From Escherichia coli (GTDB lineage Bacteria; Pseudomonadota; Gammaproteobacteria; Enterobacterales; Enterobacteriaceae), in NCBI RefSeq assembly GCF_050920415.1, contig NZ_CP169309.1: a stretch of 64,000 nt of DNA; one strand, given 5' to 3'. The position numbers were made by a program, and so were the translations under genes. Position 1 is the first letter of the stretch. The number at the start of each line of letters is the position of its first letter. The notes below the pieces were generated by a model that saw only the letters and a list, made by a program, of their open reading frames with translations, was not told the DNA's origin and ran no database searches. Shown one piece after another: positions 13,533-15,499 of this stretch.

Positions 13533-14704
13533 ATGCTGAGCAGAGAGGACTTTTACATGATAAAGCAAATGCGCCAGCAAGGTGCGTATATTGTTGATAT
13601 TGCCACTCAGGTTGGTTGCTCTGAGCGGACTGTCAGACGGTACCTGAAATACCCGGAACCTCCGGCCAGAAAAACACGCCACAAAATGGCCAAACTCAAG
13701 CCGTTCATGGACTATATCGACATGCGTCTGGCTGAGAATGTCTGGAACGGCGAGGTCATCCTGGCGGAAATCAAAGCGATGGGTTATACCGGTGGCCGTT
13801 CCATGTTGCGTTACTACATCCAGCCCAAACGTAAGATGCGGCCATCGAAGAAAACGGTTCGCTTCGAAACTCAGCCCGGTTACCAGCTACAGCATGACTG
13901 GGGAGAAGTTGAGGCTGAGGTTGCCGGGCAACGATGCAGGGTTAACTTCGCGGTTAATACGCTGGGGTTCTCACGTCGCTTCCATGTCTTCGCGGCACCA
14001 AAGCAGGATGCTGAACATACCTATGAGTCACTGGTCCGCGCCTTTCGCTACTTCGGCGGCAGCGTGAAAACCGTGCTGGTCGATAACCAGAAAGCCGCAG
14101 TGCTGAAAAATAACAACGGGAAGGTGGTGTTCAACTCCGGGTTCCTGCTGCTGGCCGATCACTATGGCTTCCTGCCACGGGCCTGCCGTCCACGAAGGGC
14201 CAGAACCAAAGGTAAGGTGGAACGGATGGTGAAATACCTCAAGGAAAACTTCTTCGTCCGGTACCGCCGGTTCGACAGCTTCGCCCATGTTAATCAGCTA
14301 CTGGAGCAGTGGATGGCTGACGTTGCCGACAGGCGGGAACTTCGCCAGTTCAGGCAGACACCGGAACAGCGCTTCACGCAGGAACAGGTGCATCTGCAGG
14401 CGCTGCCAGGTACGGACTTCGATACCAGCTACTTCGATATCCGTCATGTCTCCTGGGATGGCTATATCGAGGTTGGCGGGAACCGTTACAGCGTGCCGGA
14501 AAGCCTGTGTGGCCAGCCGGTATCAATACGGATCTCGCTGGATGATGAACTGCGATTTACAGTAATGAGCAACAGGTAGCATCGCACCGTCTCTGTTCGG
14601 CTGTATACGGCTGGCAGACCGTGCCGGAGCATCACGCCCCACTCTGGCAGCAGGTCAGTCAGGTGGAACACAGGCCGTTGAGTGCCTATGAGGAGCTGTT
14701 GTGA
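13533..14704 (+). pseudogene. istA: IS21-family transposase IstA, apparent -1 frameshift near 14550-14580
   Basis: 348 aa ORF (HTH + DDE) stops at 14579; the last ~40 codons continue in another frame and end with TGA overlapping the istB ATG. Confidence 0.7.
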
Positions 14705-15499
14705 TGCATGAACTGGAGACACTGCTGGGTCGTCTTAAAATGGAACATCTGGGCTACCACGTTGAAAGCCTGCTGGAGCAGGCGGCCAAAAAAGAACTGA
14801 ACTACCGCGAGTTCCTGTGCATGGCGTTGCAGCAGGAATGGAACGGGAGGCATCAGCGCAGTATGGAGTCCCGGCTGAAACAGGCCCGCTTCCCGTGGGT
14901 CAAAACGCTGGAGCAGTTCGACTTCGGCTTCCAGCCAGGTATCGATCGTAAGGTCGTCCGTGAGCTGGCCGGGCTGGCGTTCGTGGAGCGTAGCGAGAAC
15001 GTGATCCTGCTGGGTCCGCCCTGGTGTGGGTAAAACGCACCTGGCAGTCGCTCTCGGGGTAAAAGCGGCGGACGCTGGTCATCGGGTGCTGTTCATGCCA
15101 CTGGATAAGCTGATCGCCACACTCATGAAGGCAAAACAGGAAAACCGGCTGGAAAAACAGCTACAGCAGCTTGGTTATGCCCGGGTACTGATACTGGATG
15201 AGATAGGCTATCTGCCGATGACCCGCGAGGAAGCCAGTCTGTTCTTCCGGTTGCTGAACCGTCGATATGAAAAAGCGAGCATCGTGCTGACGTCAAATAA
15301 AGGGTTCGCCGACTGGGGAGAGATGTTCGGCGATAACGTGCTGGCAACGGCAATCCTGGATCGACTGCTACACCACTCAACCACACTGAACATCAAAGGA
15401 GAAAGCTACCGGTTAAAGGAAAAACGCAAAGCGGGAGTGCTGGCAAAAAACGCCACGCCAATCAGTGATGATGAAATGGCGGCAAGCGGACAACATTAA
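14704..15499 (+). pseudogene. istB: IS21-family ATP-binding helper IstB, apparent +1 frameshift inside the Walker A motif
   Basis: Reads ...[11 protein letters not shown] then the next frame gives [10 protein letters not shown]...; one extra base in ggtccgccctggtgtgggtaaa around 15018-15022. Confidence 0.7.

Follow-up and report, generated by a model that had tools for sequence, protein, structure and literature searches.

Dcm motifs accounted for approximately 70% of the ONT consensus errors in one enterobacterial genome, with homopolymers next (Wick et al. 2019, PMC6591954), and nanopore errors in Escherichia coli are induced by GATC and CCWGG (PMC11610603). Repeats commonly keep errors after short-read polishing (Polypolish, PMC8812927). 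The insertion sequence ISEc62 carries single, unbroken istA (1173 nt) and istB (795 nt) frames in its reference copies. We analyzed an ISEc62 copy in a 64-kb stretch of an E. coli genome; "the window" denotes this whole stretch. A preliminary description of the window had reported frameshifts in both genes of the element and had offered trans-mobilisation, decay after insertion, and homopolymer sequencing error as possible causes.

The window contains one complete element, whose identity to hundreds of E. coli copies was 98.4–99.9% over the full length (Table 1), and no second ISEc62 copy was found within the 64 kb. The reference copies were those annotated by PGAP as "IS21-like element ISEc62 family transposase" and "helper ATPase IstB"; the naming as ISEc62 is indirect, by way of these annotated copies. 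The ISfinder naming convention calls for roughly 95% or more nucleotide identity to the named element. The ends of the element showed the TG...CA termini and the short (4–8 bp) target-site duplication of the IS21 family, here 5 bp (ACCGC), and the duplication was perfect on both sides as previously described. The gene arrangement was also that of the IS21 family, with istB (AAA+ helper ATPase) downstream of istA on the same strand and a TGATG overlap at 14702–14706. As assembled, the element lacks the intact genes that are needed for autonomous transposition, both istA and istB being frameshifted. The element has every structural feature of the IS21 family and is an ISEc62 by near-identity, departing from the family solely in the intactness of the genes, which is the point at issue.

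The interrupted fimbrial usher gene ybgQ is located in the gltA–ybg region and belongs to the ybg fimbrial operon (12303–19300). ISEc62 splits the usher gene in the whole lineage, which probably leaves strains with ybgQ::ISEc62 without functional ybgD/Q/P/O chaperone-usher fimbriae.

Table 1. Coordinates of the ISEc62 insertion in ybgQ, its genes, and the two lesions (positions of the window).
Feature	Position	Strand	Remarks
ybgQ (fimbrial usher), 5' fragment	12919..13431	+	cut by ISEc62
Target-site duplication ACCGC, left copy	13427..13431	.	single ACCGC in the uninterrupted ybgQ of strain N96
Complete ISEc62 (IS21 family), TG...CA ends	13432..15556	+	2125 bp; boundaries set against the empty site
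Left terminal inverted repeat, TGTCAGCGCCAA	13432..13443	+	11/12 bases equal the reverse complement of the right end
istA, 5' part (348 codons: HTH, rve DDE core, start of the Mu-transposase C domain)	13533..14579	+	premature TAG at 14577–14579
istA lesion: one G missing (single G at 14554, GG in relatives) and private C>T at 14557	14553..14557	+	alignment to reference copies
istA, 3' part in the shifted frame (IYSNEQQVASH...AYEELL*)	14555..14704	+	TGA at 14702–14704 overlaps the istB ATG
istB, 5' part (109 codons), ending GPPWCG* within the Walker A motif	14704..15033	+	
istB lesion: CCC, CC in relatives; extra C in the Dcm site CCTGG	15019..15021	+	alignment to reference copies
istB, 3' part in the shifted frame (GVGKTHLA... 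to TAA)	15023..15499	+	
Right terminal inverted repeat, TGTCAACGCCAA on the minus strand	15545..15556	-	11/12 match to the left end
Target-site duplication ACCGC, right copy	15557..15561	.	comparison with the empty site
ybgQ, 3' fragment	15557..17508	+	

The preliminary description had located both breaks correctly. The istA frame stops at 14579, and the rest of the gene up to the TGATG, approximately 50 codons, lies out of frame; istB is broken within the Walker A motif at 15033, the remainder, from GKTHLA... to 15499, being shifted into another frame. When aligned with four reference copies, the sequence gave exactly two length differences specific to the window copy. The istA site reads CTGCGATTT in the window and CTGCGGATCT or CTGCGGATTT in relatives, and the sequence around the missing G is CTGCGAT in the window and CTGCGGAT in relatives. 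The missing G and the C>T change are 4 nt apart and both fall inside one Dam site, which is altered from GGATCT to GATTT. In regards to istB, the extra base, previously placed near 15018–15022, was fixed by the alignment as one C in the run at 15019–15021. The istB site reads CCGCCCTGG in the window and CCGCCTGG or CCGCCCGG in relatives, and the CCCTGG of the window combines the two natural alleles, CCTGG and CCCGG. The two lesions are GG>G on a Dam site and CC>CCC on a Dcm site, and neither involves a long homopolymer.

Pfam searches with the istA fragment detected rve (5.8e-14) and Mu-transpos_C_2 (1.2e-10), with HTH_23 and HTH_7 below the gathering score. The match to PF01695 (IstB_IS21) was divided at the istB lesion into profile positions 2–104 on the N-terminal fragment and 103–238 on the C-terminal fragment. 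Reverting both indels gave an IstA of 390 aa and an IstB of 264 aa with the Walker A motif GPPGVGKT. The repaired IstA scored 280 bits on NF033546 "IS21 family transposase" (cut-off 160), and the repaired IstB scored 297 bits on NF038214 (cut-off 200).

We searched other genomes for this insertion. Of 5,426 complete RefSeq E. coli genomes, a set that does not contain the window's own genome, one carries the identical ybgQ::ISEc62 insertion, namely, MFDS1022581 (NZ_CP169399.1), which is collinear with the entire window and is the closest genome to it. The chimeric truncated usher protein (175 aa, ...SSYRCQRQ) encoded at the junction, used here as the lineage tag, was found on at least 24 contigs of independent assemblies. 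The same-site sequences compared were NZ_CP169399.1 (MFDS1022581), AP025751.1, AEXD01000007.1, and DACAOI010000017.1. The same-site copies of MFDS1022581, GCA_015278885.1, GCA_000194575.2, and AP025751.1 have GG at 14553/4, C at 14557, and CC at 15019, and the last three of these assemblies encode both proteins intact, IstA with 390 aa (382 aa under a different start call) and IstB with 264 aa. According to PGAP, the copy in MFDS1022581 has an intact istA and an istB that is frameshifted elsewhere, by its own 1-bp deletion at a GATC. In the 8.5-kb alignment of the same-site copies, the changes private to the window within the element were exactly three, namely, the missing G, the C>T at 14557, and the extra C, and none was found in the 6.4 kb of flanks relative to the four sister assemblies. 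The same-site copies are without both indels, and the copy that inserted was therefore intact; the intact same-site copies belong to sister isolates of the window and not to the same isolate.

The istA and istB indels were absent from 284 and 272 ISEc62 places, respectively, examined using 81-nt probes in the 5,426 complete E. coli genomes. The truncated IstA and IstB products, searched for as exact sequences, were not on record among 153 billion gene positions, a negative result that may be weakened by differences in start-codon calls. In the older scaffold GCA_000190955.1 (GL872042.1), a 359-N gap lies inside the same-site ISEc62; the short 128-aa and 93-aa gene calls there are therefore a scaffolding artefact and represent no deletion.

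We compared the window with MFDS1022581 in unique and multi-copy DNA. The unique DNA, about 58 kb (57.9 kb), contained no indels and 2–3 substitutions, and the multi-copy DNA, about 6 kb (6.1 kb; ISEc62, an ISAs1 remnant, and a group II intron), contained 4 indels and 6–7 substitutions. The indels are concentrated in the repeats (Fisher p = 8e-5), and the four differences seen in ISEc62 compare with 0.07–0.11 expected from the unique-DNA rate (Poisson p = 1e-6 to 6e-6). Each of the four indels coincides with a GATC or CCWGG motif; these motifs account for 3.05% of the window bases (p = 9e-7). The window is missing a G in GGATC and has an extra C in CCTGG; MFDS1022581 is missing a C in a GATC of the same-site istB (window-equivalent 15362) and a C in a CCAGG of ltrA (window-equivalent 29685). 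With respect to motif sites, a window-private indel was present at 2 of 31 repeat-borne sites and at 0 of 413 unique sites (Fisher p = 0.005). No private indels were found in the IS2 of the window (5 Dam/Dcm sites) or in the intron/ISAs1 region (13 sites).

The MFDS1022581 chromosome has ISEc62 at four places. Its second ISEc62 copy, in a gene next to yibI that we take to be yibH from the gene order, has a private 1-bp deletion in an A6 run (window-equivalent 14788). PGAP flags all three MFDS1022581 genes with private 1-bp deletions (in the same-site istB, the second ISEc62 copy, and ltrA) as frameshifted. This RefSeq assembly seems to be affected by the same error syndrome as the window.

The IS2 in the window is full-length (30391–31721, 1331 bp), is flanked by the duplication CAGAC (30386–30390 and 31722–31726), and lies near the 5' end of ltrA, the group II intron reverse-transcriptase gene. 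It is 99.9% identical to other IS2 copies, with its length unchanged. This IS2 is missing from the otherwise near-identical MFDS1022581, and the window is therefore from a distinct isolate. On the minus strand at about 32343–36085, adjoining the group II intron and the ISAs1 remnant, annotation transferred from MFDS1022581 shows a truncated tssI/vgrG (T6SS tip); after it come genes for a toxin with an S-type pyocin domain and for bacteriocin immunity.

We estimate a probability of about 0.8 that the two frameshifts and the adjacent C>T are residual nanopore-type consensus errors at Dam/Dcm motifs, which would be absent from the organism; we infer the platform and the polishing history. An ancestor of this E. 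coli lineage would have received an intact ISEc62 in ybgQ, and long-read (nanopore-type) consensus errors would later have arisen at methylated Dam (GATC) and Dcm (CCWGG) motifs. In a multi-copy IS such errors may survive because short reads map ambiguously and cannot polish there, and the unique DNA around ISEc62 would have been corrected by polishing. The lesions are private to one assembly, lie on Dam and Dcm methylation motifs, and are absent from the orthologous copy in close relatives; the differences are restricted to repeats, with the errors occurring only in multi-copy DNA. This is the behavior expected of methylation-motif errors. Several observations count against this reading. The IS2 and the intron/ISAs1 region carry no private indel, only 2 of the 31 repeat motif sites were hit, the intact same-site copies come from sister isolates whereas the window isolate is distinct, and real genomes often contain frameshifted IS copies. 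The sequencing error suggested in the preliminary description is thus, in the form of a sequencing or assembly error, the best-supported explanation, but its type is that of methylation motifs in repeats rather than that of long homopolymers. If the two artefact variants, methylation-motif error and copy cross-talk during assembly, are taken together, we are slightly more confident still that the window represents a mis-assembled intact ISEc62.

The strongest alternative, which we nevertheless regard as unlikely, is that the element really decayed after an intact insertion, a 1-bp deletion in istA, the nearby C>T, and a 1-bp insertion in istB having left a non-autonomous relic; such a copy could move only with IstA and IstB supplied from other copies. 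In favor of decay, the given sequence does contain the indels, and IS copies are often pseudogenised (PGAP flags several in relatives). The window also represents an isolate of its own, which differs structurally in at least one real respect (the extra IS2), and its other repeats are without private indels. Decay after insertion, as proposed earlier, therefore keeps a small share of the probability, but it requires three private changes in 2.1 kb with none in the 6.4 kb of flanking DNA in comparison with the four sister assemblies. Likewise, the closest genome differs from the window by just 2–3 changes in ~58 kb of unique DNA, a rate at which 0.07–0.11 would be expected in the IS. Decay also gives no reason for both indels to fall on Dam/Dcm motifs (p ~1e-3 for two) or for two changes to fall in one GATC, and independent spontaneous mutations rarely lie so close together.

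Cross-talk between non-identical ISEc62 copies, either as another kind of assembly artefact or as gene conversion, would have mixed reads or sequence of other copies into the consensus of this one and produced chimeric calls beside polymorphic sites; we consider it quite improbable, well behind decay though ahead of the remaining readings. Each lesion has, within 3–4 nt of it, a site that varies among ISEc62 copies (14557 C/T and 15022 T/C), the window shares its T at 14557 with the yibH copy in MFDS1022581, and CCGCCCTGG is the exact union of the alleles CCGCCTGG and CCGCCCGG. Furthermore, five substitutions in the ISAs1 remnant and the group II intron (28789, 28825, 28897, 29561, and 31856) are private to the window, with MFDS1022581 and N96 agreeing at these positions; their clustering in repeats fits cross-talk between copies, whether by mis-polishing or by gene conversion. 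For the intron/ISAs1 region, N96, which is ~3% divergent in phrB/ybgA, was used to polarise the repeat differences; this divergence is too large for N96 to serve as a lineage member. Against cross-talk in ISEc62, neither indel is known from any other copy, which leaves biological gene conversion without a donor. In addition, the C allele at 15022 is known from no copy in this lineage, and the GATC and CCAGG indels of MFDS1022581 are left unexplained.

The trans-mobilisation of a doubly defective ISEc62 by IstA and IstB from other copies, which the preliminary description had raised, is contradicted by the same-site copies. It would account for the perfect duplication, the ends and the 5-bp duplication are intact, and MFDS1022581 has other ISEc62 copies. 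However, the same insertion event (site, orientation, and duplication) is present without both indels in four other assemblies, the indels therefore either postdate the insertion or are errors, and the insertion is lineage-wide (at least 24 contigs). We accordingly assign this explanation almost no weight.

An equally slight chance is left for a real, unrecognised process that makes single-base indels at Dam/Dcm-methylated motifs within multi-copy IS. The pattern behind this idea is that two isolates together show three different indels at one IS copy, with a further one in the group II intron; if true, IS copies would be inactivated rapidly by a motif-linked mechanism that operates independently in each sister isolate. 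Native recoding by programmed ribosomal frameshifting, as in IS3-family elements, is likewise extremely improbable: it is favored by the open downstream frames and nothing more, whereas the reference and same-site copies are all without both indels, intact copies are single-frame (against the view that the frame arrangement could be native to IS21), and inspection revealed neither an X XXY YYZ slippery heptamer at CGA TTT ACA nor a stop or rare-codon +1 context at CCC TGG.

The window holds nothing novel in this respect, the element being an intact ISEc62 that was mis-assembled or else a copy that decayed in the ordinary way; even if the frameshifts are true, the element is still an ordinary decayed IS copy. 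The lesson is one of quality control: when both genes of an IS copy look pseudogenised in a finished genome, the cause can lie in the assembly. To annotate such a copy as non-autonomous, or to derive trans-mobilisation from it, would be unsafe. Such artefacts can be checked without reads by inspecting the orthologous copy in sister genomes, the enrichment of Dam/Dcm motifs, and the distribution between repeats and unique DNA. The one biological consequence that holds under both readings is the disruption of the ybgQ usher, and probably of the ybg fimbrial operon, in the lineage.

In comparison with known systems, an IS3-type transposase with programmed frameshifting has a two-frame arrangement conserved among relatives and a slippery motif at the overlap; here, all relatives examined are in a single frame across both lesion sites, and neither site has a slippery heptamer. 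Nanopore Dcm/Dam errors in hybrid-polished assemblies (PMC6591954, PMC8812927, PMC11610603) resemble the window in their single-base changes at CCWGG/GATC, their confinement to multi-copy DNA and to one assembly, and the clean unique DNA; the window differs in that just 2 of 31 repeat-borne motif sites are hit and in that its platform is inferred. PGAP-annotated ISEc62, known from E. coli E24377A and from many ETEC or animal strains, shares with the window copy the length of 2125 bp, the istA–istB order, the TGATG overlap, the TG...CA ends, and the 5-bp duplication, whereas the window alone has the 1-bp istA deletion and the 1-bp istB insertion. The sister ybgQ::ISEc62 copies are identical to the window copy in site, orientation, and duplication, with flanks that differ by 0–2 substitutions in 8.5 kb; they differ from it in having GG, C, and CC at its three private positions, and both genes are intact in three of them.
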